From: a virus | Taxonomy: Duplodnaviria; Heunggongvirae; Uroviricota; Caudoviricetes | Length of the DNA stretch: 64,000 bases | Virus record (IMG/VR): IMGVR_UViG_3300023179_004209 | Span: 231,832-295,831 of that record | Direction: 5' to 3' (one strand) | Shown here: positions 6,141 through 60,596 of the stretch, one piece after another | How the letters are laid out: each line of letters starts with the position of its first letter | Numbering within the stretch: the first letter of the stretch is position 1 | Program-made: the position numbers and the translations under genes | The notes under the pieces: model-generated | Databases searched by the model: none | Told to the model about the DNA's origin: nothing | Seen by the model: the letters and a program-made list of their open reading frames with translations, nothing else

Positions 6141-6488
6141 ATGAATATTACCGCTGCTAAAGATGTTCCTAATGTAGATCAAACTAGTATTTGGAAGGGA
6201 TTTTATGAGGCGCACTTTATGAGTGGTGAAGAAATAAACCAAAAGTATCCTATATTAAATACCAAGTGGAAATATTCAAATCATAAGCCAGTAACAGGTG
6301 GTAGTGAATATGGATACTACTATTCTTATTATAGGGATTGGAGTACTGAAGTAGTGACTGATCCGTGGTATAGAAATCTTATTAATAATGGTAATCCGAT
6401 TAATAAAAGTGAAATGGAAACTGTGTTTTCTACAACCGTGGAAGGCAACAAAGTTATATTAGTAATTTATCTAAATACATACGTATGA
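6141..6488 (+). CDS. hypothetical protein
   Basis: ORF. Confidence 0.5.
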   Translation: MNITAAKDVPNVDQTSIWKGFYEAHFMSGEEINQKYPILNTKWKYSNHKPVTGGSEYGYYYSYYRDWSTEVVTDPWYRNLINNGNPINKSEMETVFSTTVEGNKVILVIYLNTYV

Positions 6489-7048
6489 TTAACTATAAAC
6501 AACATTTGATTGACCGAGCAAATAATTTGGGTGTATATGATATTGCTTCTGTGGTAATTACAGATCCACGATTTGAATTGTGGAGTGGTAGTAGCAAAGA
6601 ACATCAACATCACTATGGTATGGGTGGTTTGATACAACATACATATGAAGTAGTTGAATTGTGTATTTCTAATTATATTTTATTAAAATTAGATGTTGAC
6701 CGAACTGAATTGTATTTGAGTGCGTTATTTCACGATTGTGGCAAAATGTGGGATTATGAACCAGTTAATGAAGAATATACAAAATGGCAAGGAACTGAAC
6801 ACAAACGAACTATTCATCATATCAGTCGTAGTGCAATTACTTGGAATCAGGCGTGTGCATTTCATAATTTCAAGTATGGTAAATATGCTGATAGTGTTAC
6901 CCACAACATTTTGTCACATCACGGACATCGTGAGTGGGGAAGTCCAGTGATGCCAAAGACTAAAGCTGCGTGGTTGTTGCATTTGTGTGATGGTATCAGT
7001 GCGAGAATGAATGATGCTGACAAGTGGGATTTTGTAAAAAAGGATTAA
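6485..7048 (+). CDS. HD-domain metal-dependent phosphohydrolase
   Basis: H..HD..H..H..D series: QHTYEV, FHDCGK, SHHGHREWG, HLCDGIS. Confidence 0.7.
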   Translation: MINYKQHLIDRANNLGVYDIASVVITDPRFELWSGSSKEHQHHYGMGGLIQHTYEVVELCISNYILLKLDVDRTELYLSALFHDCGKMWDYEPVNEEYTKWQGTEHKRTIHHISRSAITWNQACAFHNFKYGKYADSVTHNILSHHGHREWGSPVMPKTKAAWLLHLCDGISARMNDADKWDFVKKD

Positions 7049-7053
7049 AACAT

Positions 7054-7512
7054 ATGATTATACATAAAGATTGTAATATTTTTGATGGTGGTGCTCAAGG
7101 CATTATACATCAGGCGAATTGTCAAAACACTATGGGTAGTGGCATTGCTAGAGAAATTCGTGCTAGATATCCGGAGGCTTATGAAGTGGATTGTCTGACA
7201 ATTGCTGGTGACTATAAGAAGTTGGGTACATTTAGTAGTGTAAAGACTAATGATGGTAAATTTGTAATTTATAATTGTTATAGTCAGTATCGTTATGGGC
7301 GTGAAAAACGTCATACCAATTATGAAGCAGTTTATACTGGATTGAGTAGTATTGAACAAAATGCAAGAGAATTGGGATTAACTACACTTAGTTTGCCATA
7401 CAATATGGGATGTATGTTGGGTGGTGGTAGTTGGCGAATTGTTAGTGTGATCATTGATGAAGTTTTCAAAGATTCCCCAATAGATTTATATATTTGCAGG
7501 TATACCCCGTAA
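7054..7512 (+). CDS. Macro domain protein (ADP-ribose binding/processing)
   Basis: IFDGGAQGIIHQANCQNTMGSGIAREIRARYPE matches the Macro-domain N-terminal signature. Confidence 0.65.
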   Translation: MIIHKDCNIFDGGAQGIIHQANCQNTMGSGIAREIRARYPEAYEVDCLTIAGDYKKLGTFSSVKTNDGKFVIYNCYSQYRYGREKRHTNYEAVYTGLSSIEQNARELGLTTLSLPYNMGCMLGGGSWRIVSVIIDEVFKDSPIDLYICRYTP

Positions 7513-10041: not shown

Positions 10042-10064
10042 CCCCTAGGATAAAGCCATAGGGG
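10042..10064. repeat. IS end hairpin CCCCTAGG-ATAAAG-CCATAGGGG (right end, overlaps tnpB stop)
   Basis: 8-bp stem with A bulge; near-identical copy at 11323-11345. Confidence 0.6.
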
Positions 10065-11211
10065 CTTGTAATGCTGTTGCTTTCACAACAGGCTTACATA
10101 CATTTGGCTGGTTGACGACAGCCTGCCCGTAAGTCAGGTAATTAGTCTGTGATACGGGAAGTTTGGACAATTTAGCAATATTGATTGCCGCATTAATGTC
10201 CGCATCATAAATAAGTCCATTCTTAGAGTAAAATCTACAACCTCTTCTTTCTCCATCACGATTTCCAGTTACACTATCAATCTGTGATGTATAATAAGGG
10301 CGAACTAGTAGAACCAATTTACCTTGATTCTCTGCCTTATAGCTTATTACTCTACGAAGTTCAAATATTGGAACTTGTCCAATTGAACGCTTATTTTGAT
10401 ATTTATTTTTTTTCTTTTTTATACCGACAAGATTTTCAAGCACGATTGTATCTGCTTCTGTGTTTAAAACTTCATTAGCAATCAAATGTGTTTGATTTCT
10501 ATTTTTGTTAGATTCTTTATGTTTTAACTTACGAAGATGTCTTCTGGCACTTTTAGTGCTTTTGGATTTGAGACTATCTTTTAAATGTCTCAATCTACGC
10601 TTATCTCCATTAAACTTTCTATCAATAATTATTCTACCATCACTACAAGCTGCATTACGACGAATGCCGATATCTACTCCTAAAGCGAGTTTTTGTTTTA
10701 ATGGTTCTTTAGGTTTATTATCAAATGTAAATGATATAAATAATTTACCATCATTTTCATAAATTAGAGGATCTGTATATTCATATTTGTCCAATAATTC
10801 CTTTAGTTTAGGATACACTACAAATTTAAATGATTGTCTTCCAGAAGTAGTAGTTATACGGATTGAATATTTATCAGTTTTGTTTTTTGAATAAAGTCTT
10901 TTATCTAAACGCATGGAAAGGTTTTTCTTTTCAATTGATTTTTTTAATCTGTGTTTATTTGACTTTGTAGATTTATAACTTGATAAACATTCTTGTTCTG
11001 CTTTAATAATAACTTGTGATGGTATATTTGGATATTGTTTTCTAATGTTATTATAAACTTTAGAATGTAAAACTAACAAACTATTTTTTGTTTCATTGAA
11101 TTGATGTTGTGAAGCAAAATTAAATACAACTTTATGCATTTCAAGAATTGACTTTAAACTATCAAAGTCTTCTTGATTTTTCATTAAAAGTTGTGTATTA
11201 TATGATATCAC
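10045..11211 (-). CDS. tnpB: TnpB (OrfB) RuvC-like RNA-guided nuclease family protein
   Basis: RuvC-I GVDIGIRRNAA, RuvC-II IVLENLVG, RuvC-III YDADINAAINIAK; zinc-finger Cys mostly lost. Confidence 0.75.
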   Translation of the reverse strand: MISYNTQLLMKNQEDFDSLKSILEMHKVVFNFASQHQFNETKNSLLVLHSKVYNNIRKQYPNIPSQVIIKAEQECLSSYKSTKSNKHRLKKSIEKKNLSMRLDKRLYSKNKTDKYSIRITTTSGRQSFKFVVYPKLKELLDKYEYTDPLIYENDGKLFISFTFDNKPKEPLKQKLALGVDIGIRRNAACSDGRIIIDRKFNGDKRRLRHLKDSLKSKSTKSARRHLRKLKHKESNKNRNQTHLIANEVLNTEADTIVLENLVGIKKKKNKYQNKRSIGQVPIFELRRVISYKAENQGKLVLLVRPYYTSQIDSVTGNRDGERRGCRFYSKNGLIYDADINAAINIAKLSKLPVSQTNYLTYGQAVVNQPNVCKPVVKATALQAPMALS

Positions 11212-24215: not shown

Positions 24216-25991
24216 ATGGCAATCAATATTTTTACACATATACGTAGAGGTTTATATGATAATGTTTACAATTGTATAGAAAAAGAAAAGGTGGATGTCA
24301 ATCAAAGAGATGATGACACTGGCAATCCACCACTGGTTGTTGCGGTAGAAGAAAACCAAATAGAAATAGTCAGATTACTATTAAACCACGGTGCTGATGC
24401 CAATTGTAAAGATTGGACCAGTAAAAATACCGCATTGGATGTAGCTGAACAAAAAGGTTTCAAAAATATTGCAGAAGTATTACAACAAAGAGGTGCAAAA
24501 TACAGTAGTGGTAGTAGTTTCCATTTAGCTGCAAAGAATGGTGATATCGTTTCTATCGAAGAAATGTTGAATAAAGGATGTGATATCAATGAAGTTGACG
24601 CAGGTAAAGGTTGGACTGCTCTACATTACGCTGTTAATTATGGACAAAAACACTTGGTTGAATATTTGATTATAAGAGGTGCAGATGTCAACAAGAAAGA
24701 TTTCTTGGGTAAAAACAATCCTATTGATGTATTATCCAACACCAATAGAGGTGAAATTGTTAAATTATTGAATAAATACGGTGCTAAATCCGCAGGTGGT
24801 GTTAGTATTCATTTCTGCGCAGAAACTGGTGATTTTGAAGGTGTACAATCATTCTTTGATAAAGATGGTAAAGTTAATGGTAGAGATGAAAAGAATGGAT
24901 GGATGCCATTACATTATGCCGTTAACGCTAACGATGTTGATATGGTGGAGTTTTTGGTACATTTGGGAGCAAATGTTAACGGTGCAGATTTTAAAGGTGA
25001 AATTGCTCCGTTAGACATTGCATTCAAGACTGGGAATGTAGAAATGCAAACATATCTACAATCCAAAGGTGCGCAAAGAAAGAAGAAACATGATACTGGT
25101 GGTGGTGGCAAAGATGTAACCATCTATATTACAGAAGAAGTCAAGAAACAAATTGCAATGTTTATTGAAAAGCGTGAAAAAGAAGAAGCTGCAATAAAGA
25201 AACATGAAGAAGAACAAACTGCAAAAGAACCTAAAAAGAAAGATGCACCAGCTAAGAAAATTAACTGGAAAGATTTCTTGAAACTTAAAGATATTCCAGT
25301 TGTAGAAAAGAAAGAAGAAAAGAAGGTAGAAGTGGTTAAACCCGTCAAACAAATTGTCAAGAAAGTTGAACAAGTTGATATAGAAGTTAAATCCAGTAGA
25401 TTACAATTGGATGTTGAACAAGAAGGTTACATATTCTTCATGGACATTGTTGCTTATAGTAAGAAAACAACTGATGAACAAAAGAAAGCTTGTAAAGATT
25501 TGGGTGCATTGGTTAAGTCTACAATGCAATATAAAACCGCTAATGCTCTTGAAAAGTTAATTATATTACCTACTGGTGACGGTATGGTATTGGGATTCTT
25601 TACTTATTTGGAAGATGCAATGAATTGTGCTATTGCTATAGCTAAAGCAGTAAAGGATAGACCAGATTTACAAATGAGAATGGGTGTACATTGTGGATCA
25701 GTAATTCCAATGGAAGACATCAATGGTAATCTTAACATTAGTGGTGACGGTATTAATTATGCTCAAAGAGTAATGGATGCGGGTGAAAGTAATCATTTAT
25801 TGGTTAGTTCAGCAGTAATGTTAAAGTATGACCGACCACCATATGTTTTGGTAAACGATCTGGGAGATGTAGTTGTAAAACATGGTGTAGTGATGCATTT
25901 GTATAGTTTACATGGTAGTGACTTTGGCAATAAAGCATTTCCATCTAGTAGAGTGAAGAAGGCAGAACCTACTGATTCAATCAAAAAATAG
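24216..25991 (+). CDS. ankyrin-repeat protein fused to class III nucleotidyl cyclase homology domain
   Basis: about 8 ANK repeats (GADANCKD, TALHYAV, PLHYAV...). K/E-rich linker. CHD motifs FFMDIVAYS, PTGDGMV, MRMGVHCGSV, SGDGINYAQRV. Confidence 0.65.
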   Translation: MAINIFTHIRRGLYDNVYNCIEKEKVDVNQRDDDTGNPPLVVAVEENQIEIVRLLLNHGADANCKDWTSKNTALDVAEQKGFKNIAEVLQQRGAKYSSGSSFHLAAKNGDIVSIEEMLNKGCDINEVDAGKGWTALHYAVNYGQKHLVEYLIIRGADVNKKDFLGKNNPIDVLSNTNRGEIVKLLNKYGAKSAGGVSIHFCAETGDFEGVQSFFDKDGKVNGRDEKNGWMPLHYAVNANDVDMVEFLVHLGANVNGADFKGEIAPLDIAFKTGNVEMQTYLQSKGAQRKKKHDTGGGGKDVTIYITEEVKKQIAMFIEKREKEEAAIKKHEEEQTAKEPKKKDAPAKKINWKDFLKLKDIPVVEKKEEKKVEVVKPVKQIVKKVEQVDIEVKSSRLQLDVEQEGYIFFMDIVAYSKKTTDEQKKACKDLGALVKSTMQYKTANALEKLIILPTGDGMVLGFFTYLEDAMNCAIAIAKAVKDRPDLQMRMGVHCGSVIPMEDINGNLNISGDGINYAQRVMDAGESNHLLVSSAVMLKYDRPPYVLVNDLGDVVVKHGVVMHLYSLHGSDFGNKAFPSSRVKKAEPTDSIKK

Positions 25992-26025: not shown

Positions 26026-27453
26026 ATGACCGTATCTGAATTAAAATCATTAATAAAAGAAGTATTACTTGAAGCAGTACCATTTGATAAATCAACTGAT
26101 ATTGAATACGGACTAAAAGCCAAGTATGATGAATTGGGCGATTATACATTTGGTGTAGAATTTGAATTTGAACCTGTTGTAGAAGAACAGAATTTATCAA
26201 TGGATCAAATCATAGAAAAGTTGTCAGAGTTGATGGGATCATCATACCGTTATGATAATGGATTAACTGACGCATATAATTCGTGGGTTGAAGAACAAAG
26301 AAAAGAAGCGGCTTGGAAATGGAACCGATATGGAACCATTGATAATATTGATAGATATGATGAAGAATATGGTCCAATGAGTGTAGATACATTTGATAGT
26401 AGTGTTCCAGAACCAGAAAGAAATGATTTTGATAGTGATGATGAATACAATGAAGCATATGAAAAATATGATGAAGTAAGAAATGAAATAGACAGTGAAT
26501 ATGATCGTTGGGAAAGAAGAAATCGAGGTGATTATGTTGATGAATATTTAAGACTTTTAGCAAGAAGTGGAGAATGGACTGATTTTATTCCAGATAGTGA
26601 AATGACTGTAACTGATATGGAAAATGGTATTGATTCTGCGTATAACTTATTAGATAGTTTGGGTGAAGATGTAAGAAAAGATGATAAACCAGATAAAAAT
26701 ACATGGGCAGTAGGAGAAGACGGACCAAATGTTGAAATAAGAAGCAGACATATGAGACAAACTGGTCATGATTTTAATATTATTTCCAAAGTAGGAAATT
26801 GGGTAAGTGATCAAGCAACACACGGTAAAACTGGGATGCATATTCATATAGGAGTTCCAAGTGATTTTGATATGTTTGATGTATTGGCAATGAGTACATT
26901 GGTTGATGAAAAAGCTATTAAATCTGAAGTAGCCATGGATAGAGATTTTAACAGTTTTGCTAAATTGAGAAGAAGTTTGAGTAACGCAATTTATAACAGA
27001 ATTCATGAATACATGCGTAGACAATCTGAAAATGTACCAAAATCTTTTATTCTTACAAACGCACAAATGAAAGAAATATTATCTGGATTTGATCGTAATC
27101 ATGGTACAAATATTGCAGCATTTAGTGAACATAAAACAATTGAATTTAGATATTTGGGATCTGATATGGCAGATCAAGTATTAAAGTGGATATCTTATTT
27201 CTTGTTGTTACCTCGTATTGCTAAGAGTAGAAATCAGATAAAATTGGATACTATTTATAATGAACAAATAGTAGCTACCAGATTACCAGGCAAGATTAAA
27301 TTTGATTTGTTTAAGACTGATGAACCAAGAACTAGTGTTCCAATGCCAAAAGAACCTGCAGATTTAATCAAACAAAAAGCATTTGAATTACCAAGCAAAT
27401 TGGATATTGCGAAACAACAAGCTGCGGTTAAAAAACAATCGGGAACACAATAA
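26026..27453 (+). CDS. acidic protein with propeptide-like N-terminus MTVSELKSLIKE
   Basis: ORF; D/E-rich first half. Confidence 0.55.
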   Translation: MTVSELKSLIKEVLLEAVPFDKSTDIEYGLKAKYDELGDYTFGVEFEFEPVVEEQNLSMDQIIEKLSELMGSSYRYDNGLTDAYNSWVEEQRKEAAWKWNRYGTIDNIDRYDEEYGPMSVDTFDSSVPEPERNDFDSDDEYNEAYEKYDEVRNEIDSEYDRWERRNRGDYVDEYLRLLARSGEWTDFIPDSEMTVTDMENGIDSAYNLLDSLGEDVRKDDKPDKNTWAVGEDGPNVEIRSRHMRQTGHDFNIISKVGNWVSDQATHGKTGMHIHIGVPSDFDMFDVLAMSTLVDEKAIKSEVAMDRDFNSFAKLRRSLSNAIYNRIHEYMRRQSENVPKSFILTNAQMKEILSGFDRNHGTNIAAFSEHKTIEFRYLGSDMADQVLKWISYFLLLPRIAKSRNQIKLDTIYNEQIVATRLPGKIKFDLFKTDEPRTSVPMPKEPADLIKQKAFELPSKLDIAKQQAAVKKQSGTQ

Positions 27454-27472
27454 TTCTTATATTTATAACAAT

Positions 27473-28936
27473 ATGACATTGTTTGAACATATTTTGATTG
27501 AAGGTAGAGTGGATGATTTTAAGAATTTATTAAAAAATAAGTTCAGCATTGATTATGTTCAAAAGATTATCAATAGAGATACCAGCAAAAACCATAAGAA
27601 TTTGTTATGGATTGGTAAGATACTAAAAACAGAACCAGATATCAATGAAGAAGATTTGTTTAAAAATCTGGAAATATTCAACAAAGTAGCATCATCCACT
27701 GATTTGTATAGTTTTAAAGAGTATAGTACATTTTTGAGTTTCTTACAAAAGAAAAGTAAAGAAGTACAAATGGGTAAGATGGCTCAAATCAAAGCTGGTT
27801 CACGTACAATTAAAGATGATAAAAGATGGTTGGTAGTTGCACCAGAAACACATGATGCAAGTAGATATTTTGGTGGTGGTACCAGCTGGTGTATCAGTAC
27901 AAGCAATGATAGATACTGGAAAGATTATTATTATGCACAAACCATAGTAATGATTAAAGATAGAAGTAAGAAACCAGACAATGACTTGTTCAAAGTTGCC
28001 ATTGTTGGTAATGCCTATGAACAACTTTGGGATACTAGTTTTAGTGATAAGATAGATAAAATCAGAGAATTATCAAAACATGTAGATTTATATAATGTCA
28101 ATGACAATAAATTAAGTGGTGACCAAAAAATTAATTATTTAGGACAATTACCAGAAGATTTAATTGAAGACTTGATGAATTATTTTAATGATGATGATGT
28201 CTATGAAAGACAAACCAATCATTATTATGAACTTGCAAGAGAAAGATATGATGAAGGTGGTAAAGAAGAACTTTTGAAATCATTGTTTAATACTACGGTA
28301 GCGTATTTTGATGCGGATGTTGATTTTCATGCAGATGATTTTGGTGATTTAATGAGCAGACAATTTGCAGATGAAATTCAAGACGGTAATTGGGATGAAT
28401 TTTTAAGTGAACTATGGGGTGCATGTATAACTTATCAAGGTGTAGAGGATGATTCTTTTTATGCTGAAGTAAATACAAGAAATTTCAAAAACTTGATAAG
28501 TGATACCAGTTATGATTTAAATACCTATCTTGATTTAGCCAAAGAAGTATTGAAAAATGAGGATATATCAAATATGGATAACATCATAAAAGATGCGTTG
28601 ATTAAAACATCTGATAATGGTGATCCATATACTGTAATTAAAAGACAAGCAAATCAATTAAAAGATACAAATTATAATGATATAATATTATCATCATTAA
28701 ATGCATATAATGCAAAAAATAATCCTACTTTTATTCAAGGTCAGAGATCTTTGGGACCAGAATTTATGGGTATTGTAAATAAATTTAAACCAAAGAACAT
28801 TGAGGATGTAATTAAAGTGTTGAGTATCAATCCTAGAGCAAAGGATATGATTGATCAGATACAAAGATACAGAAGAGATTTGTATGAATCCAAGAAAAAG
28901 CGGACAATTAAATATAGAGATTTTTACAAATTATGA
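27473..28936 (+). CDS. hypothetical protein (N-terminus MTLFEHILIE)
   Basis: start moved to ATG after TATATTTATAACAAT to avoid 70-nt overlap. Confidence 0.5.
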   Translation: MTLFEHILIEGRVDDFKNLLKNKFSIDYVQKIINRDTSKNHKNLLWIGKILKTEPDINEEDLFKNLEIFNKVASSTDLYSFKEYSTFLSFLQKKSKEVQMGKMAQIKAGSRTIKDDKRWLVVAPETHDASRYFGGGTSWCISTSNDRYWKDYYYAQTIVMIKDRSKKPDNDLFKVAIVGNAYEQLWDTSFSDKIDKIRELSKHVDLYNVNDNKLSGDQKINYLGQLPEDLIEDLMNYFNDDDVYERQTNHYYELARERYDEGGKEELLKSLFNTTVAYFDADVDFHADDFGDLMSRQFADEIQDGNWDEFLSELWGACITYQGVEDDSFYAEVNTRNFKNLISDTSYDLNTYLDLAKEVLKNEDISNMDNIIKDALIKTSDNGDPYTVIKRQANQLKDTNYNDIILSSLNAYNAKNNPTFIQGQRSLGPEFMGIVNKFKPKNIEDVIKVLSINPRAKDMIDQIQRYRRDLYESKKKRTIKYRDFYKL

Positions 28937-29874
28937 ATAACGAAGGTATATCATTGATTGATACAAAGAAAGGTATTCCCAGATTAAATTTTAGATTTGA
29001 CAAAGATTATCCTGAAGATTTTATATCAATTGGTTCTGGAAAGTTCATCCAAAAAAGAACTGGTGATATTAATTTAATTTATTTGGCTCATAAATTCATG
29101 AGTGAAAAAGAGGTGATGGATCAATTGTCATTTTATATAAATCAAACAGACATTAATGCAAATCCTACCATTAATGCTAAAATTGCTAGATACCCAGATT
29201 TATTTTTCACATATAAAAAAGAAATAAGAAAAGCAATTAAAAACTTAAGTGCTACTGATTATATATCATTTACTGGTAAAAATATAGAACATGTTAAAAC
29301 AATGATACATAGAGGTATACTTGATTTTAACAATAGAATAAACTATGTTAAAGATTATGATTTGATTATTACTGTTCCTAGTCAAGCTCCGTTAAATCAA
29401 ATGATAATTAATGAATTTAAGAGTTATATAAATCCAGAAAAAACTTTGGTAATAGATGACTTTTTATTAAAAAACCGTGTTAAAGATATTAGATGGGATA
29501 ACAATGAATATTTGGAAGTAGAAGAAAGAGAAGGAAAAAATCCTGATCAAATTGCCAAAGTAAGAAAAATGAGAGATATTATGTTGAAAAGTATATATTC
29601 AAAAGGCAATCTAAATAAAGACTTTCAAGTAAAGATGGTAACCAAATCCAGTTTAAGAAGATATTTTCATAAGTTCATGCACATTAATGATAAACTAGAT
29701 GAACAATTATTTTTAAAGATTAACAATGGTAAAATACTAATTATTGATGATAGCTTTGGTTCAGGAGTAACTATGAAAGAATCATCAAGAGCGATTAAAC
29801 ATTTAAATCCTAAAACAGTTGACGCATTCATTCTGCTCCACGATTACGCACCAACAGCTAAAAAAACTGGTTGA
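28933..29874 (+). CDS. hypothetical protein
   Basis: ORF. Confidence 0.55.
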   Translation: MNNEGISLIDTKKGIPRLNFRFDKDYPEDFISIGSGKFIQKRTGDINLIYLAHKFMSEKEVMDQLSFYINQTDINANPTINAKIARYPDLFFTYKKEIRKAIKNLSATDYISFTGKNIEHVKTMIHRGILDFNNRINYVKDYDLIITVPSQAPLNQMIINEFKSYINPEKTLVIDDFLLKNRVKDIRWDNNEYLEVEEREGKNPDQIAKVRKMRDIMLKSIYSKGNLNKDFQVKMVTKSSLRRYFHKFMHINDKLDEQLFLKINNGKILIIDDSFGSGVTMKESSRAIKHLNPKTVDAFILLHDYAPTAKKTG

Positions 29875-38519: not shown

Positions 38520-39019
38520 TGATTAAATTATCTCAATTAATAAATGAATTAAAATTGACAAATGATATGCGTATTCATATGTCAAAGAATCCATTTGAAT
38601 TGGAACAAAGAACATTCAAACAAAACATTGGAATGAAACCATTTGGATTTTGGTATGGTTTTGGTAGTGAATGGATTGACTGGACACGAAGTGAAGTGCC
38701 GGATTGGGTTGGTAAATACATTTATAGTGTTGATATTGGAAATTCCAATGTATTACAGATAAATACCCATATGGAATTGATGCAATTTAACCGTGAATAT
38801 CAATCCAATATAAGTGGTATTGGACATAGAAGACTAGAAGGTGAAGTAATTGACTGGAAAAAAGTTGCTGATAAGTATGATGGTATAGAAATCAATCCAT
38901 ATCAATTTGAAGCTAGATATCAATATTTATGGTATTATGGTTGGGATATTGCAAGTGGGTGTATATGGAATTTAAAGAATGTTAAACTAAAGTTGTTAAC
39001 TGATAAAGGAATAGAATGA
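38519..39019 (+). CDS. protein with N-terminal MIKLSQLINE (propeptide candidate 4)
   Basis: ORF. Confidence 0.6.
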   Translation: MIKLSQLINELKLTNDMRIHMSKNPFELEQRTFKQNIGMKPFGFWYGFGSEWIDWTRSEVPDWVGKYIYSVDIGNSNVLQINTHMELMQFNREYQSNISGIGHRRLEGEVIDWKKVADKYDGIEINPYQFEARYQYLWYYGWDIASGCIWNLKNVKLKLLTDKGIE

Positions 39020-39537
39020 ACTTGATTACAGAAAATAGACACAGTGAATTTGGTTGTTTAATGGCTATAGTTGAACCAACCAGAGGACCACACATCATTA
39101 AATTTGGTAAAACAATAGTACCACCACAAATTCTTTATACTGATCCAAATGATAGTAGCTATGGTTATGATGATGAACCACACATTACAGCTAAGTATGG
39201 TTATTCTCCTGACTTAACAAGAGCTAATTTAGCCACCATTCTACAAGGTATCAAACCATTTATTGTTAAACTTACTGGTTTAACCCAATTTCAAAATGAA
39301 AAGTATGATGTAGTCAAGTTTGATGTAGAAAAGAATGAGATATTATCTGAAATAAGACGAAGATGCGATTGTTATAAGAATGAGGATAAATACCCAGATT
39401 ACAAACCACATATGACATTGGCTTATGTACAAAAAGGTAAGTTTCCTCATATTAAAGAAGGATTAAACATATCTGTACCAGTCACCAGATTCAAATATAG
39501 TGGTCAAGACGGTAAAAAATTATACATCAATTTGTAA
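39016..39537 (+). CDS. 2H phosphoesterase superfamily protein (LigT / cyclic phosphodiesterase-like)
   Basis: two H-x-T-x motifs (EPHITAKY and KPHMTLAY) about 85 aa apart. Confidence 0.6.
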   Translation: MNLITENRHSEFGCLMAIVEPTRGPHIIKFGKTIVPPQILYTDPNDSSYGYDDEPHITAKYGYSPDLTRANLATILQGIKPFIVKLTGLTQFQNEKYDVVKFDVEKNEILSEIRRRCDCYKNEDKYPDYKPHMTLAYVQKGKFPHIKEGLNISVPVTRFKYSGQDGKKLYINL

Positions 39538-40929: not shown

Positions 40930-41571
40930 ATGTTAAAATCATTATTATCACTACTATTAACTACAACAATATTTGCAGCGGAATTTGAATCGGTAAATTA
41001 TTATACAAAGAATTACCTATTTGACGCTCAAATATATTCTGTCAATACTTTCGTATCCGAAAACACACTTAGCCATCAACTAGGTGATTTTACGCCGCAT
41101 CTTGACTATGTACAATACCAAGGTTTGGATAAATATAAAGAAAGTGACTTTGGATTTGGTAGTGAATATAAACTAACAGATAAACTAAATTTGGATGTAG
41201 GTAGTTGGTATTACTATTATTACAGTGCAGGTGACCATTATTTTGAACCATACGCATCATTAACTTATGATTGGATAGTATCACCAACATTATATTTTAG
41301 TATGATAACATACAATAATACACCTAGAGCAACAATAAGCTTTGATTATAACAAAGATTTTAATGAAAAGCTGCATTTGAATGTAAGACCAGTGATTGGT
41401 ACTGCAGACTATGATGTAAGATATGGTTATTATGGTATAGTATTTGGTTTGGATTACAATGTAAATAAGAATTTTACATTGTTTACTGTTACAGAAGTTG
41501 ATAAACCTTTTAGTTCACCTGACGATAGTATCGTATACACTTATTCATTTGGAATCAAATTATCCCTATGA
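40930..41571 (+). CDS. secreted Tyr-rich beta-rich protein (possible outer-membrane protein)
   Basis: signal peptide MLKSLLSLLLTTTIFAA; alternating aromatic pattern. Confidence 0.5.
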   Translation: MLKSLLSLLLTTTIFAAEFESVNYYTKNYLFDAQIYSVNTFVSENTLSHQLGDFTPHLDYVQYQGLDKYKESDFGFGSEYKLTDKLNLDVGSWYYYYYSAGDHYFEPYASLTYDWIVSPTLYFSMITYNNTPRATISFDYNKDFNEKLHLNVRPVIGTADYDVRYGYYGIVFGLDYNVNKNFTLFTVTEVDKPFSSPDDSIVYTYSFGIKLSL

Positions 41572-43007
41572 AATTTCTTAAATTCAATTTGAGATTCGCA
41601 TTATCTACCAGCACACTATTCATTTTAGTGTTGGTAAGTATGGTATATTTCTTTTTGTTAATATTTGCAATTGAAGATATTGCAAAGAATAGTTTGAAAA
41701 GAAGTTTAAATACCTCGGTGAATATTTGTAGCAGTATTCTTGACCCAAATGAAATTGAAAAGTTAACTGAATATGAACAAGAAAAAAGCGAAGTATTTAT
41801 CAATTACAGAAAGTCTATCAAAGAAATAAAGAAAGAAGTAGAAGATATTAAATTTGTTTATATTGTAAGACAAACGGGTACAAATATCACTTATATAATA
41901 GATTGTGGTGATGATGTATCCGAACAAGCTAAATTGGGTGAAATATATGATGATGCGGGTGATGGATTGAAAGAATTATTTAACAATCCAGTTGAAGGTG
42001 TAACATTTGAGAAAGAATATTATACAGACAAGTGGGGTACATTTTTATCCGCATATAAACCAATATTTAAAAACGGTAAAATCATATATGCAGTTTGCAG
42101 TGATATCAAGTCAGTTGATGTTGAAAAGTATATATCAAATTATAAAAAGAAGTTTACTTGTGCATTTTTTACATTGTTAATTGTTATATTTCCAATCATA
42201 TGTTGGATAACAAATATGATTAGAAGACCACTTAATAAGTTAAGAGATGAAATTCTCAAGTTAAAAGATTTGGATGTAGATGAACATATTGATTTTAAGA
42301 GTAGTATCAGTGAAGTAAATGATATGATTGACGCAACTGATAAGGTAAAAACTGGTTTAAGATCATTTTCAAAGTATGTACCTGACAAGGTTGTAAAACA
42401 ATTGATAAGTCAAGGTAAGGATGCAAAAATTGGTGGGGAAAAAGAATATGTAACAATACTATTTAGTGACATTGAAGGATTTACAAGTATATCTGAAAAC
42501 AATGATACTCAAGAAGTTGTAACTGCATTAAATGAATATTTTGATATCTATGTACATTGTTTGGAAGAAAGTGGTGCAACTGTTGATAAATTCATTGGTG
42601 ACGCTGTAATGTCATTTTGGAATGCACCAAGTAAAGTTGAAAACCATGAATTTATTGCGGTCAAAACTGCAATGGAAATTGTCAAAGAAATTAATAAATT
42701 GAATCAAAAATGGAAAACTGAAGGTAAGAAATTTACATTCAAAACCAGAATAGGTATCAATTCTGGTGAAGTTATTGTCGGTAATATTGGTTCGACAAAC
42801 CGTATCAATTATACTGTTACTGGTGATCCTGTTAATTTGGCATCAAGATTAGAAGCGTCAAATAAACAATACAATACAACAATTTTAGTAAGTGAATCTG
42901 TTTATAATAAAACAAAAGAGTCAATTGATTATAATTATATTGACACAGTGAAGGTAAAAGGAAAAGAAATATATGTAAAAGTATATCAACCCGTTAAACT
43001 CAAGTAA
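41568..43007 (+). CDS. transmembrane sensor class III adenylyl/guanylyl cyclase
   Basis: TM1, about 150-aa extracytoplasmic domain, TM2, linker, then CHD. CHD motifs FSDIEGFTSISE, KFIGDAVMSFWNAP, RIGINSGEVIVGNIGS, TVTGDPVNLASRLE. Confidence 0.75.
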   Translation: MKFLKFNLRFALSTSTLFILVLVSMVYFFLLIFAIEDIAKNSLKRSLNTSVNICSSILDPNEIEKLTEYEQEKSEVFINYRKSIKEIKKEVEDIKFVYIVRQTGTNITYIIDCGDDVSEQAKLGEIYDDAGDGLKELFNNPVEGVTFEKEYYTDKWGTFLSAYKPIFKNGKIIYAVCSDIKSVDVEKYISNYKKKFTCAFFTLLIVIFPIICWITNMIRRPLNKLRDEILKLKDLDVDEHIDFKSSISEVNDMIDATDKVKTGLRSFSKYVPDKVVKQLISQGKDAKIGGEKEYVTILFSDIEGFTSISENNDTQEVVTALNEYFDIYVHCLEESGATVDKFIGDAVMSFWNAPSKVENHEFIAVKTAMEIVKEINKLNQKWKTEGKKFTFKTRIGINSGEVIVGNIGSTNRINYTVTGDPVNLASRLEASNKQYNTTILVSESVYNKTKESIDYNYIDTVKVKGKEIYVKVYQPVKLK

Positions 43008-45823: not shown

Positions 45824-45852
45824 TTGACAAAAGAATAAATCGTGGTAAGATA
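45824..45852 (+). promoter_or_regulatory. promoter TTGACA-N17-TAAGAT followed by AGTAGTAAGTTCTTTAAAA
   Basis: as above. Confidence 0.5.
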
Positions 45853-46532: not shown

Positions 46533-46721
46533 TTTTGTTTGTCCGTTGCTTAAAAGAAACGGAATGGTGGAGGGTAAATAACCAAAACACCCCTAGAGTT
46601 GGAAGTTCTCTTAAAAAACTTCTTGGTTGCGGGGATGAGTCATGGTATACTTTGTTTGTTGGGTGGACAAAGTATTCAATAAACACACCCAACACAATTT
46701 ATATAGTTCTTTAAAATTCAA

Positions 46722-46878
46722 TAGCTGGCGGCAGGTTAGATCTGGGGGTGGCTCATAACCATTCATTAAGTAGGTGCGATTCCTATGCTTCAGCAACCAT
46801 TTGAATGGCTGGGGTTTCAGCAAACGACGAATCCTCATAAGGTTTGTTAAGTGGGGGCAGCACCCATACCAGCTACCA
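46722..46878 (+). ncRNA. tRNA-like / mini tmRNA-like element (acceptor-like stem + T-like arm + CCA; internal GCA AAC GAC GAA TCC TCA TAA)
   Basis: 5' TAGCTGG pairs with 3' CCAGCTA followed by CCA; hairpin GTGGG-GGCAGCA-CCCAT; exact 12-mer of canonical tmRNA tag start at 46820. Confidence 0.3.
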
Positions 46879-46970: not shown

Positions 46971-46998
46971 TTGACAAAACATCAATGTGTGATAAGAT
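46971..46998 (+). promoter_or_regulatory. promoter TTGACA-N16-TAAGAT
   Basis: drives short RNA ending at terminator 47109-47141. Confidence 0.5.
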
Positions 46999-47004
46999 GA
47001 TTTT

Positions 47005-47141
47005 AAGGTTAGTTGAGTCCGTTACCTTAGATTAAAAACTCAACAGTGTTTGATCAGAGCTTCTATAATAAATGATCTCTCGACCAGTAGATAGCTGGTT
47101 ACATTTTCAGTGGTTTTGAAGATAAAACCACTCGGATTTTT
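47005..47141 (+). ncRNA. putative small RNA between promoter and terminator
   Basis: hairpin GTTGAGT..ACTCAAC and terminator hairpin AGTGGTTTT..AAAACCACT + TTTTT; no ORF. Confidence 0.4.
47109..47141 (+). terminator. Rho-independent terminator
   Basis: 9-bp stem + CGGATTTTT. Confidence 0.6.
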
Positions 47142-47166
47142 AGTTAGTTCTTTAACAAAACAATTT

Positions 47167-47252
47167 GCGGGGTGTCAGAAGTCTGGTATCTGGCTACGCT
47201 CATAACGTAGTGCCATTTGGCCTCGGAGGTTCAAATCCTCCCCCCGCTACCA
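47167..47252 (+). tRNA. long-variable-arm tRNA with anticodon CAT (identity uncertain)
   Basis: D-stem CAGA/TCTG; anticodon arm CTACG-CTCATAA-CGTAG; 14-nt variable arm; T-arm GGAGG-TTCAAAT-CCTCC; 6-bp acceptor GCGGGG/CCCCGC; ends ..TACCA. Confidence 0.5.
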
Positions 47253-47258
47253 TTTAGT

Positions 47259-47350
47259 GGCCTCAAGATGTAAGGTGCATGGGGAGACTTATAATCTCTA
47301 TAATCGCTCGATTGGCGTTCTGGGCAGTTCGATTCTGCATGAGGCTACCA
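47259..47350 (+). tRNA. type II tRNA, Leu/Tyr-like body with anticodon loop CTTATAA (apparent anticodon TAT)
   Basis: acceptor GGCCTCA/TGAGGCT; anticodon stem GGAGA/TCTCT; long variable arm; T-loop TTCGATT; A+CCA. Confidence 0.5.
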
Positions 47351-48476: not shown

Positions 48477-48499
48477 TTTTTGATAGTTCTTTAACAATT

Positions 48500-48810
48500 T
48501 AAGATAGTGGCGGAACAACAATTAGTTTAGTTGTAACGCACAATATATGGCGTTGAAAAACGTTGTATATTGGTTGGAGTAAGAATCATGGAGGGTAAGT
48601 CTATGGAGAATTTGAGGTCGTTCAACCTCAAATTTGAGCGTATCGGGACCGTAGCTAAAATTTAAATGATAAATCGTAGCCCGTTGTGGGGAAAACAAAA
48701 TCCCATCAGTCATCAACACAAGGAGTAATTACCCGTGTGGACTGTGGATGAATAACCAGTCATGATTAAGAAACTTGGAGGTAATCATTAGTCCTTCCTA
48801 TTTTGATTTA
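48500..48810 (+). ncRNA. uncharacterized structured non-coding segment
   Basis: no ORF; hairpins GAGGTCGTTCAACCTC, CGTTGAAAAACG; preceded by GTTCTTTAACA motif. Confidence 0.25.
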
Positions 48811-48897: not shown

Positions 48898-48990
48898 GGC
48901 TCTGTGATGTATGGTGCATGGGCAGACTTATAATCTGTATAATCCCTAGATTTGGGTGCTGATAGGGTTCAATTCCCTACGGAGCCACCA
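48898..48990 (+). tRNA. type II tRNA paralog of 47259..47350, anticodon loop CTTATAA (apparent anticodon TAT)
   Basis: acceptor GGCTCTG/CGGAGCC; anticodon stem GCAGA/TCTGT; about 24-nt variable region; T-arm TAGGG-TTCAATT-CCCTA; A+CCA. Confidence 0.5.
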
Positions 48991-49000
48991 TTTTAAATAT

Positions 49001-49112
49001 GGATCAATAGCTCAATTGGTTAGAGCGAAGAACTCTTTCTCTGCTTATAAACTAAAAGTATAAGTAGGAAATAATTCTTGGGTTATCGGTTCAAGTCCGG
49101 TTTGATCCACCA
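49001..49112 (+). tRNA. tRNA gene with about 35-nt insertion in the anticodon loop (possibly CAT anticodon after removal)
   Basis: acceptor GGATCAA/TTGATCC + A + CCA. D-arm GCTC-AATTGGTTA-GAGC. Anticodon stem AAGAA/TTCTT encloses 42 nt beginning CT and ending AA. T-arm ATCGG-TTCAAGT-CCGGT. Confidence 0.5.
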
Positions 49113-49115
49113 TCT

Positions 49116-55672: not shown

Positions 55673-56764
55673 ATGAAGATTGACATTCAAAAGGTTGACC
55701 TCACCCAATTTATGGTGCATGAACATTCACTTAATGGTGAAATTGTCCAGTTGATTCAGCCCCAACATATTGGCACTAAATGGCATCAAGACAACAAGCA
55801 TATGCGTAGTGTAATTGTGAATTATGCAGGTGAAGTTATCAGTGCAGGTTTTCCTAAGTTTACCAACTGGGGTGAGAATCCTGATCACTTTCCTGTTCCT
55901 AATTCATTGAAGCATTGCACCGTTGTTGAAAAGCTTGATGGTTCATTGTTGATTGTTAGTAAGTATAATGGTCAATATATTCTACGTACCCGTGGAACTG
56001 TTGATGCTTCTACTATGGCTAATGGTCATGAACTTGAAATTTTCAAGAACACTATTTTATCCAAGTTGGCTGATAACAATGATACTTGGGATTATTCAGT
56101 GCTTTTTGAGTGGTTGTCTCCTATCAACAAGATTGTTTTGAACTACGGTGATGAACCTTCTTGGAGATTGATTGGGTTTATTAACCACATCAACTATTCA
56201 CTTGCACAACAAGATATGTTGGACGCTATGGCTAAGAAGTATGGATTTGATCGTCCTCCTACCTATACTTTTTCTGATGTTCAAGATCTGTTAAAGGATG
56301 TTGACCAATGGAGAGGTAAGGAAGGTGTAGTTGTTTATTCAAAGAATGACCAAATGCTTCACAAGGTAAAGGGTGCTTGGTATCTTGCTCTACATCATAT
56401 GAAGAGCGAGTTGTCAAACATTGAGAAGGTTATAGATGTATGGTTGGAACAGAGTATGCCTGACTATCAGACTTTCTATAGTTATATCTTTACCACCTTT
56501 GATTACGAATTGGCTGAACAGTGCCGTGGTATGATTAGCCGTATTTGTGATGCTAAGAAGGAAGTGGATATGATTGTGGTTGGTATGAATGAATTTGTGA
56601 ATAACAGACTCAAGACTCTACCTACTCGTAAGTTACAGGCTGAACAAGTAATTTCAGCTTATGGTAATACTAATAGAGCTTCATTTTTGTTCAAGTTGCT
56701 TGATGGTAAGTCGTTAGGCAAAGAAGAATATAAGAAGTTACTATTTCAAGTATTGAAAAACTAA
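55673..56764 (+). CDS. ATP-dependent RNA ligase, T4 Rnl1-like
   Basis: motif I EKLDGSLL (KxDGS as in T4 RnlA KEDGSL); later EGVVVYSK and HKVKGAWY. Confidence 0.6.
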   Translation: MKIDIQKVDLTQFMVHEHSLNGEIVQLIQPQHIGTKWHQDNKHMRSVIVNYAGEVISAGFPKFTNWGENPDHFPVPNSLKHCTVVEKLDGSLLIVSKYNGQYILRTRGTVDASTMANGHELEIFKNTILSKLADNNDTWDYSVLFEWLSPINKIVLNYGDEPSWRLIGFINHINYSLAQQDMLDAMAKKYGFDRPPTYTFSDVQDLLKDVDQWRGKEGVVVYSKNDQMLHKVKGAWYLALHHMKSELSNIEKVIDVWLEQSMPDYQTFYSYIFTTFDYELAEQCRGMISRICDAKKEVDMIVVGMNEFVNNRLKTLPTRKLQAEQVISAYGNTNRASFLFKLLDGKSLGKEEYKKLLFQVLKN

Positions 56765-60140: not shown

Positions 60141-60596
60141 ATGAGTACAATTTATATCGCCGTTGGATTGCCTGGAAGCGGTAAATCCACATACGCAAAG
60201 AACTTTATTAAAGGAAAAGACATTGAATACCTAAGTAGTGATGAATTACGAGCTGTATTTGGTAAAAGTGAAGAAGATCAAACGGTGACTCCACTTGTTT
60301 TTGGTCACATCAAAAGAAAGGTTGACGAATTTCTAAAAGATGGTAAAAATGTATTGGTTGATGCAACCAGTGTAAACCGTAGAGAACGATCTGATTACAT
60401 CAACACCGCAAAGAAATATGGCGCAAAAGTAATTGCTCTTGTTTTCAAGATGGATCGTGCTGGTTTGATTACACGAAATCAAAAGAGAGGTCAAGAAGGT
60501 GGCAGAGTTGTACCTGATTGGGTTATTGATAAGATGTTAACAAAGTATGAAGAACCTTCTACCAGTGAAGGTATTGATGAAATAATTTATGTTTGA
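60141..60596 (+). CDS. P-loop polynucleotide 5'-kinase (Pnkp kinase-domain-like)
   Basis: Walker A GLPGSGKST; size and context with phosphoesterase and RNA ligase. Confidence 0.6.
   Translation: MSTIYIAVGLPGSGKSTYAKNFIKGKDIEYLSSDELRAVFGKSEEDQTVTPLVFGHIKRKVDEFLKDGKNVLVDATSVNRRERSDYINTAKKYGAKVIALVFKMDRAGLITRNQKRGQEGGRVVPDWVIDKMLTKYEEPSTSEGIDEIIYV

Follow-up and report, generated by a model that had tools for sequence, protein, structure and literature searches.

The locus and the fold of its tRNA(CAU)

The DNA analysed here is a stretch of 64,000 nucleotides (nt), positions 231,832 to 295,831 of the IMG/VR virus record IMGVR_UViG_3300023179_004209 (Caudoviricetes), and is referred to as the window in the following. 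It is phage-like, low in GC (~32%), carries almost all of its genes on the plus strand and has no near relative among the phages in GenBank. The element of interest is a tRNA gene with the anticodon CAU and an extra arm in its variable region that resides in a tRNA array. ARAGORN calls it as an 87-nt tRNA(cat) at 47166-47252 on the plus strand, and the Rfam tRNA model gives it 40.5 bits (gathering score 29, E = 4e-6), so that the gene is called by two tools. The gene and its parts are as follows.

47166-47252, plus strand: the whole gene, an extra-arm initiator-type tRNA(CAU) (ARAGORN, Rfam, minimum free energy (MFE) fold, identity across loci, covariation)
47166-47172, plus strand: 5' strand of the acceptor, U1 G2 C3 G4 G5 G6 G7; its partner is 47242-47248 (CCCCGCU), with U1 and U72 unpaired
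47175-47193, plus strand: D arm with the five-pair stem UCAGA/UCUGG and the loop AGUCUGGUA, which contains G18 G19 (covariation, alignment)
47194-47210, plus strand: anticodon arm CUACG-CUCAUAA-CGUAG, loop 47199-47205, anticodon CAU at 47201-47203 (sequence; the stem covaries)
47211-47224, plus strand: variable region UGCCAUUUGGCCUC, 14 nt, U-GCC-AUUU-GGC-CUC, a hairpin of 3 base pairs (bp; GCC/GGC) followed by CUC (MFE fold)
47225-47241, plus strand: T arm GGAGG-UUCAAAU-CCUCC (four of the five pairs covary)
47249-47252, plus strand: discriminator A73 and genome-encoded CCA (sequence)

Six pairs (GCGGGG/CCCCGC) make up the acceptor, while U 47166 faces U 47248 unpaired at 1:72. Aligned with type I relatives, the tRNA has one additional nucleotide between position 9 and the D stem. 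Its MFE fold is a five-helix cloverleaf (-32.2 kcal/mol, z = -2.4) with the fifth helix in the variable region. An original prediction made from the letters alone had described a tRNA gene with CAU on an extra-arm body, and the ARAGORN call, the Rfam score and the family covariation described below bear this out. The D arm (CAGA/TCTG), anticodon arm (CTACG-CTCATAA-CGTAG), 14-nt variable arm with a GCC/GGC stem and T arm (GGAGG-TTCAAAT-CCTCC) that it listed are all present, the D stem running to five pairs with the flanking U/G, and the hairpin and the T arm recur in the fold. It placed the end of the gene correctly at 47252; the start is U1 at 47166 and not 47167. Likewise, the six acceptor pairs and the TACCA end (U72-A73-CCA) stand, but the mismatched seventh pair is no defect and corresponds to the normal 1:72 feature of initiators. 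A run of ARAGORN had been suggested as a check, and an alternative fold with type I geometry as evidence to the contrary; the gene is called with 87 nt and anticodon cat, and no ordinary short-variable-loop fold is available for the sequence. Judged by these lines of evidence, 47166-47252 is a real, highly conserved phage tRNA gene predicted to read AUG.

Relationship to initiator tRNAs

In the alignment, the acceptor G2-G7/C66-C71 is identical to that of Escherichia coli tRNAfMet encoded by metZWV, and the T loop UUCAAAU is also that of E. coli tRNAfMet. As in initiators, the CAU anticodon resides in a CUCAUAA loop (47199-47205), a Watson-Crick G:C pair is lacking at 1:72 (U1/U72), and the pair aligned with A11:U24 is A:U and thus of the purine 11:pyrimidine 24 type. 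The determinants for formyltransferase, G2:C71, C3:G70 and G4:C69 together with A73, are complete. Two defining initiator features are absent. The three consecutive G:C pairs at 29-31:39-41 are replaced by A:U at 29:41, C:G at 30:40 and G:C at 31:39, and instead of type I geometry (4-5-nt variable loop, 4-bp D stem) there is a 14-nt hairpin region and a 5-bp D stem. These two features set the window tRNA apart from canonical members of the initiator family.

The exact anticodon arm CTACGCTCATAACGTAG (17-mer) occurs in 30 IMG/VR loci, mostly within tRNAs of ordinary size (72-78 nt) with the form YGCGGGR-UGGAGCAG..GGUAGCUCG-...-CCCGCA-ACCA. A type I tRNA from one related locus (L006, 4775-4851; L numbers denote the ~290 retrieved related loci, which are partial sequences) matches four places in each E. 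coli genome with 87% identity over 76 nt, among them the metZWV initiator operon with its three tandem tRNA-Met genes next to amiC. On balance, and as part of the explanation favoured below, we propose that the window tRNA descends from a bacterial initiator tRNA, gained an extra arm and a fifth D-stem pair and lost the three G:C pairs in its own lineage. It appears best filed as a structural variant of phage-encoded initiator-type tRNA-Met and is most likely a Met-accepting, formylatable phage tRNA. The original prediction had dismissed kinship with initiators solely on account of the missing G:C pairs, a step that we cannot follow as the remaining molecule is of the initiator type.

Size, distribution and covariation of the family

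A wide degenerate scan that required an initiator-like acceptor, a CUCAUAA loop and, after a long gap, the T loop matched at least 119 viral loci. A narrower pattern specific to the architecture in the window, which forced GCGG on the 5' side of the acceptor (the 3' side was free) and the first two extra-arm pairs, defines what we term the subfamily. It matched 18 viral loci, 72 metagenome loci and four of 185,579 species genomes. All four of the latter are metagenome-assembled genomes (MAGs) of Bacteroidota in which the match lies within a dense tRNA array, and a phage origin of these four contigs is likely. Together, the viral and metagenome contigs and species genomes yield 52 distinct subfamily sequences. 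The 87-nt gene itself is identical in 13 places (12 retrieved loci and the window), and a stretch of 112-113 nt (the gene and 22 nt upstream) is 100% identical in ~10 loci, while other matched stretches reach ~72-90%.

Covariation was measured on an alignment of 38 subfamily sequences against shuffles and slid controls. Paired cells amount to 94.9%, compared with 76% in shuffles, the slid controls collapse, and 16 of the 25 pairs show changes on both sides. All four standard helices (acceptor, D, anticodon and T stem) give a strong signal: all five pairs of the anticodon stem covary, and three of five D-stem pairs change on both sides, the fifth being U:G or U:A in 33 of the 38 members. In the extra arm, the first two pairs are invariant but were forced by the search pattern, and a third pair occurs in some members. 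The consensus of the variable region is Y-GC-(loop or hairpin)-GC-CUC with loops such as GAAA, GUAA, AUUU and UAAC, and a 27-nt version is found in L073. Judged by identity and covariation, the tRNA in the window is real and under selection.

The 38 members also show which initiator features persist. Position 1:72 is unpaired in 25, U:A in nine, A:U in two and U.G in two members, and never G:C. The 11:24-equivalent pair is purine:pyrimidine in 28/38. G2:C71, C3:G70 and G4:C69 are invariant, the 5' GCGG being forced by the search and the 3' side not; A73 is nearly so. A14, G18G19, the CUCAUAA loop, the T loop and CCA are conserved along with A73. All three anticodon-stem G:C pairs are kept in ten members, and U31.G39 occurs in 12, most of them with G:C at 29:41 and 30:40.

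A wider, less constrained set comprises at least 74 distinct extra-arm CAU tRNAs with arms of 10-27 nt, many of which are unrelated in sequence. Among the matches listed, 1:72 is a mismatch or A:U/U:A in 73 of 74, and A73 is present in 63 of 74. The variable regions of the wider set form hairpins more often than shuffles do. Because these arms vary in length and sequence and the initiator signature is yet common to them, an extra arm appears to have been added repeatedly to initiator-type tRNAs in phages.

Named phages carrying this subfamily were not found in GenBank: a megablast search of GenBank phages with the tRNA region gave no match, and blastn with the 87-nt gene gave short T-arm matches only. 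A full-text literature search, which left subscription literature uncovered, retrieved no published account of extra-arm initiator or Met tRNAs in phages. When ten concatenated subfamily representatives were compared with GenBank phages, an 87-nt gene of Bacteroides phage crAss001 was hit. This gene, crAss001_t23, is annotated as tRNA-Met and has C1xA72, A73 and a 20-nt arm; its counterpart in the Kehishuvirus 'tikkala' is annotated as tRNA-fMet.

CAU genes in related phages

A T4 Rnl1-type RNA ligase encoded in the window (55673-56764) retrieved 63 related loci. The closest relatives that reach the tRNA array are L257 and L281 (ligase protein 88% and 95% identical, respectively). In both, the slot between the Glu tRNA gene and a 92-nt UAU tRNA gene is occupied by a 79-nt type I initiator-like tRNA whose acceptor, UGCGGGG/CCCCGCU-ACCA, is identical to that of the window tRNA. 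In L250 and L258, the same slot holds tRNAs of 73-79 nt that we call A-type and that also have U1/U72. Initiator-like variants of differing architecture thus replace one another in closely related phages.

Five loci (L200, L221, L225, L198 and L193) carry three CAU genes, namely an A-type, an extra-arm and a 77-nt gene. The extra-arm gene is the same as that in the window in the first four and differs by one base in L193. The 77-nt gene (GGGCC...) has the typical tRNA-Ile2 form with C4:G69 and C5:G68, and because the relatives carry this separate gene, the Ile2 role is filled by a tRNA other than the extra-arm one. A further arrangement exists in L173 (700-785) and L185 (1381-1466), where a paralogue on the same extra-arm scaffold with five D-stem pairs has a full C1:G72 pair and an AUCAUAA loop and adjoins the U1/U72 version. 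The scaffold may therefore be used within a single phage for two Met tRNAs, one initiator-like and one elongator-like.

Class, codon meaning and decoding

With 14 nt and a 3-bp stem, the variable region exceeds the 10 nt plus stem by which class II tRNAs are recognized. The identity elements and homology of Leu, Ser, Tyr or selenocysteine (Sec) tRNAs are absent; the anticodon is CAU, the acceptor is that of an initiator and the body aligns with tRNAfMet. By descent and identity, as judged from the alignment, the window tRNA is not class II. An elongator tRNA-Met would have a Watson-Crick pair at 1:72 and pyrimidine 11:purine 24, whereas U/U and A:U are found. A tRNA-Ile2 would have C4:G69 and C5:G68 on an Ile2-type body, and G4:C69 and G5:C68 are present here. 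The original prediction was therefore right in stating that this is no canonical elongator Met, lysidine-type Ile2 or initiator tRNA, as it lacks some of the defining features of each.

Two candidate origins were considered and rejected. The two extra-arm UAU tRNA genes of the array share the start of the D arm with the phage Leu(CAA) tRNA, and a Leu-derived origin resembling nematode nev-tRNAs was rejected for the CAU gene by its alignment with initiator tRNAs. An allo-tRNA of the 8/4 or 9/3 type was rejected as well: the acceptor has seven positions (six pairs and a mismatch) over a T stem of five pairs, four of them covarying.

Codon meaning was assessed in 286 tblastn alignments of 34 open reading frames (ORFs) of the window with relatives at 55-97% identity; the relatives share sites, so that the counts are not independent. 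ATA faces an Ile codon (ATA, ATT or ATC) in 69% of cases, a Leu codon in 13% and a Val codon in 12.5%; for comparison, Leu codons align with Leu in 85-89%. ATG aligns with ATG in 73%. AUA behaves as Ile and AUG as Met, the pattern is that of the standard code, and recoding of sense codons is rejected on the basis of these tables. The original prediction had grouped the CAU gene with two UAU genes as three type II tRNAs aimed at AUA/AUG codons. The two UAU genes do exist and are called by ARAGORN (47259-47350 and 48898-48990); a joint change in the meaning of AUA and AUG finds no support, since their arms are unrelated in sequence to that of the CAU gene and the codon exchanges are standard. 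The anticodons of the array fit the most used AT-rich codons of the phage, AGA, AAA, GAA, UUA, UUG and AUA (20.7 per 1000). A phage tilS or aminoacyl-tRNA synthetase gene, also suggested as something to look for, was not encountered, nor were formyltransferase or deformylase genes, in Pfam and PHROG scans of all ORFs of at least 300 and most of at least 150 amino acids in the window, which is part of the genome.

The tRNA array and its surroundings

The following features accompany the CAU gene in the array.

45.5-49.1 kb: tRNA array with Arg(UCU), Lys(UUU), Glu(UUC), CAU, UAU, Leu(CAA), Leu(UAA) and a second UAU (ARAGORN)
46533-46700: structured region of ~170 nt after tRNA-Glu, conserved in all relatives; matches the wcaG RNA motif with 32 bits, below the gathering score of 42 (Rfam)
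46723-46799: X1, CAU-bearing tRNA-like element ending in ACCA, uncalled by ARAGORN and Rfam
46807-46878: X2, CAU-bearing tRNA-like element ending in ACCA, uncalled by ARAGORN and Rfam
46971-46998, plus strand: promoter-like site GTTGACA-N16-(TG)-TAAGAT, ~170 nt upstream of the CAU tRNA; motif kept in relatives, function predicted
47109-47132, plus strand: terminator-like hairpin and T run between the promoter-like site and the CAU tRNA (sequence)
47259-47350, plus strand: extra-arm tRNA(UAU), 92 nt, 6 nt after the CAU tRNA (ARAGORN)
48492-48716: weaker match to the manA motif (Rfam)
48898-48990: second extra-arm tRNA(UAU) (ARAGORN)
49001-49112: Ile2-like CAU gene with an insert at 49036-49070; with introns allowed, ARAGORN reports 'Lys(CUU) with 35-nt intron' at 49001-49113

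All array tRNAs called by ARAGORN encode CCA. A UAU tRNA of 92-95 nt is present in ~46 of the 98 loci that hold the CAU subfamily, and in many loci the UAU gene lies 6-12 nt downstream of an initiator-like CAU gene. The extra-arm UAU genes are 89-95 nt long, and 31 distinct sequences with very diverse bodies were found in the retrieved loci. Among bystander UAU tRNAs, 32 of 47 distinct ones reach at least 82 nt. The stem of the UAU variable arm covaries (CGC/GCG, CCC/GGG, GCUC/GAGC, GCAC/GUGC) and its loop keeps the motif YAGAUD, e.g. CUAGAUUUG, suggesting sequence-specific recognition of this arm. Both UAU copies in the window have a short D loop, and the first has A at position 8. Long tRNAs (at least 82 nt) with other anticodons are also found in the retrieved loci (Asn GUU 10/44, Thr UGU 7/40, His GUG 4/32). 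Phages may put extra arms on 'type I' isoacceptors more widely.

The gene at 49001-49112 is, by its alignment, the ortholog of the 77-nt tRNA-Ile2-like CAU gene of the relatives. A hairpin-forming insert of 35 nt follows directly after C34 (CUC / 35 nt / AUAA), and its excision would restore a CUCAUAA loop. Among the ~290 retrieved loci the insert is confined to the window, and the fold of the precursor tRNA has z = -3.4. The gene could be a pseudogene or contain a mini-intron; Rnl1 ligase, kinase and 2H phosphoesterase are encoded nearby. The cloverleaf of X2 is small, with GGCAGCA as a non-canonical T loop; the element is near-identical in eight relatives and aligns with a 76-nt elongator-Met-like tRNA of L162. 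X1 has no cloverleaf fold and replaces the A-type initiator-like tRNA of the relatives. Suppressor tRNAs were noted as well: tRNA-CUA is found in L006, L019, L149, L158 and L180, and the 28-tRNA array of L169 contains tRNA-UCA and no Trp-CCA, suggestive of stop-codon recoding in these relatives. The window itself uses TAA 52, TGA 17 and TAG 4 times as stop and reads well in code 11.

The promoter-like motif recurs at 45824 and 48321 and at ten other sites on the plus strand, with 13 relaxed matches on this strand and one on the minus strand. The terminator-like hairpin is part of a ~110-nt segment that is absent from several relatives. Shine-Dalgarno motifs were counted at 7 of 73 ORFs, which is no more than background. 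Such low use is what Bacteroidota usually show; promoter-like sites of the TTGACA/TAnnWT type with a strand bias are unexpected for this group, so the two signals point to different host types.

Outside the array, these genes deserve mention.

55673-56764, 60141-60596, 39016-39537 and 6485-7512: RNA repair/conflict genes, the first encoding the T4 Rnl1-type RNA ligase, the others further members of the set
10045-11211, minus strand: TnpB/IS605 OrfB gene, opposite in strand to nearly all else, with 689 metagenome homologues at E <= 1e-20 that are up to 97% identical
24216-25991 and 41568-43007: two adenylate/guanylate cyclase-domain proteins, one fused to ankyrin repeats
26026-29874: an amidoligase-like and a phosphoribosyltransferase-like gene

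The repair/conflict set consists of the Rnl1 ligase, an AAA_33/KTI12 (Pnk-like) kinase, a 2H/LigT phosphoesterase and HD and Macro domain proteins, which suggests healing and sealing of cleaved tRNAs. The TnpB homologues include contigs of 300-400 kb.

Proposed function and alternative explanations

Overall, a functional initiator-descended phage tRNA that is methionylated, formylated and supplies initiation is the explanation we favour with modest confidence; its structure is what we observe and its function what we infer. The tRNA would be transcribed within the phage array, with no need for CCA addition, and charged with Met by host methionyl-tRNA synthetase (MetRS) via the CAU anticodon and A73. 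Class I synthetases, to which MetRS belongs, approach the tRNA on the face opposite its variable region, so the extra arm should be tolerated. Formylation by the host formyltransferase is proposed because the unpaired 1:72 position and G2:C71, C3:G70 and G4:C69 are all present. The tRNA would then deliver (f)Met at AUG starts of phage mRNAs, with a partial leak into elongation being possible given the absence of the three G:C pairs and the weakness of the 1:72 mismatch. Extra arm and altered anticodon stem would render it structurally distinct from the host initiator, and its most plausible purpose, at the same time the least supported step, is that phage initiation stays supplied if the host initiator is depleted or attacked.

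Several points weigh against this explanation. The window copy is devoid of the three G:C pairs, and an E. coli initiator mutated at these positions, though formylated, initiates only when formylation is limiting and then acts in both initiation and elongation (PMC6393288). Close relatives carry a second initiator-like CAU tRNA (73-79 nt, U1/U72), and either of the two may be the one that initiates. In L169 the extra-arm tRNA, there with U1:A72, is the only CAU tRNA in an array of 28. Our analysis identified no defence system targeting initiator tRNA. With the three G:C anticodon-stem pairs missing, the window copy may act in initiation, elongation or both.

The mutant and the sole CAU tRNA of L169 make a dual or elongator role a serious rival, although one we hold only tentatively. 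A Met tRNA of initiator descent would be used by EF-Tu also at internal AUG codons, its weak 1:72 position and missing G:C pairs permitting partition between IF2 and EF-Tu. Mitochondria provide a precedent with one tRNA-Met serving initiation and elongation. Further support comes from L036 and L176, where the extra-arm tRNA is likewise the only CAU tRNA (16-17-tRNA arrays), from 1:72 being U:A or A:U in 11/38 members, from the three G:C pairs being absent in the majority of the family and from the fully paired paralogue in L173 and L185. On the other hand, the loci are partial, so that 'only CAU tRNA' may fail genome-wide; the lineage has a separate elongator-like CAU element in X2; and the U1/U72 mismatch in the window and unpaired 1:72 in 25 of the 38 members, with selection against G:C at this position, is an initiator signature. 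A more specific proposal, which we consider rather doubtful, is a counter-defence or take-over device: an initiator remodelled by its added arm, rebuilt D stem and altered anticodon stem would be accepted by host MetRS, formyltransferase and ribosomes, yet missed by a nuclease or toxin directed at the initiator or specifically recognized by a phage factor. VapC toxins are known to attack initiator tRNA (PMC10264068, PMC12482277). That VapC targeting, the RNA-repair genes, the rewritten anticodon stems, the fast turnover in the slot and the expected tolerance by MetRS all fit an escape; none of them demonstrates it, and we only infer that the extra arm evades a host factor directed at initiator tRNA. 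If the proposal held true, the phage would keep or privatize initiation after the host initiator pool is disabled, and slot swapping between type I, A-type and extra-arm forms, the pile-up of CAU genes and the RNA-repair genes would be traces of an arms race.

The same turnover of structural types between close relatives could point at an RNA that does not translate at all, acting as a decoy or sponge for an initiator-recognizing toxin or nuclease or as a regulatory RNA. The number of CAU-bearing genes in the array, some of them degenerate (X1, X2, 47166-47252 and the insert-broken Ile2-like gene), would agree with this, and metagenome allo-tRNA(UAU) species are translation-inactive and linked to toxin-antitoxin loci (PMC5389517). 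We nevertheless regard a decoy as unlikely, as all elements of an L-shaped, chargeable tRNA (A14, G18G19, CUCAUAA, T loop, A73, CCA) are conserved and a decoy does not need all of them. Still less probable is an Ile tRNA in which C34 is converted to lysidine by TilS and which, charged by isoleucyl-tRNA synthetase, reads AUA. CAU is indeed the gene-level anticodon of tRNA-Ile2 and AUA is frequent in this AT-rich genome (20.7 per 1000 codons). E. coli TilS, though, picks tRNA-Ile2 by C:G at 4:69 and 5:68, which are G:C here; a typical Ile2-like tRNA exists separately in the relatives and as an ortholog at 49001-49112; two UAU tRNAs already cover AUA; and tilS was not found in the window. Least credible, and already largely refuted, is charging by leucyl-, seryl- or tyrosyl-tRNA synthetase with recoding of AUG (and, with the UAU genes, AUA) as proposed for nev-tRNAs. 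The long variable arm, A73 as a discriminator also of Leu and Tyr tRNAs and the charging of a nematode class II tRNA(UAU) with Leu in vitro (PMC3333845) speak for it. Against it stand a body homologous to initiator tRNA and not to the phage's own Leu tRNAs, an arm that is a mini-hairpin of 2-3 bp, five D-stem pairs compared with three in bacterial Leu and Tyr tRNAs, and the exchanges across relatives (ATG-ATG 73%, ATA-Ile codons 69%, ATA-Leu codons 13%).

Significance

In textbooks, long variable arms are reserved for Leu, Ser, Tyr (in bacteria) and Sec tRNAs, and initiator tRNA is counted among the most conserved RNAs. Here, a phage gene family (52 distinct sequences, at least 74 in the wider set) puts an extra arm, often together with a non-canonical anticodon stem, on an initiator-type body. 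Should these tRNAs be active in initiation, they would show the limits of initiator remodelling compatible with MetRS, formyltransferase, IF2/IF3 and the P site, would bear on the long-standing question of the purpose of the three G:C pairs and would constitute natural scaffolds for orthogonal initiation. Should the remodelling instead serve to evade host factors, this would mark initiator tRNA as a battleground in phage defence. The presence of a related gene in the cultured model phage crAss001 makes these ideas testable at the bench.

Comparison with known systems

E. coli tRNAfMet (metZWV/metY) shares with the window tRNA the anticodon CAU, the G2-G7/C66-C71 pairs, an unpaired 1:72 position, A73, encoded CCA, A:U at 11:24 and the T loop UUCAAAU. 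It differs in having C/A instead of U/U at 1:72, a 5-nt variable loop (AGGUC) instead of 14 nt with a hairpin, and three G:C pairs in the anticodon stem where the phage tRNA has A:U, C:G and G:C; five D-stem pairs and the extra nucleotide after position 9 are peculiar to the latter. The type I initiator-like tRNAs of related phages (L006, L257, L281) have the same kind of acceptor, UGCGGGG/CCCCGC(U/A)-ACCA, and occupy the slot directly before the extra-arm UAU tRNA, and that of L006 even has the same anticodon arm. They differ in that their variable loop is an ordinary AGGUC and their D stem a canonical GAGC/GCUC.

The tRNAs of crAss001 (t23) and 'tikkala' resemble the window tRNA in the CAU anticodon, an initiator-type acceptor, a long variable arm and the location in a tRNA array beside an HNH gene. 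They represent another subfamily with a 20-nt arm unrelated in sequence, a four-pair D stem, two of the three G:C pairs kept and CCA unencoded. Class II tRNAs (bacterial Leu, Ser and Tyr; Sec) also form an extra stem-loop from the variable region. In contrast to these, the window tRNA has an anticodon, acceptor and discriminator context of the Met/fMet type, an arm much shorter than that of Ser tRNAs, five D-stem pairs as opposed to three (Leu, Tyr) or six (Sec), and a sequence that is not similar to the Leu tRNAs of the phage itself. Nematode nev-tRNAs and bacterial allo-tRNAs likewise combine a long variable arm with an anticodon outside Leu, Ser and Tyr, UAU being favoured in both groups (PMC3333845, PMC5389517). 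Their bodies are of Leu or Ser identity (8/4 or 9/3 in allo-tRNAs) and would mistranslate, whereas the window tRNA has a 7/5 initiator-type body with an anticodon that agrees with its identity elements, and no recoding is seen.

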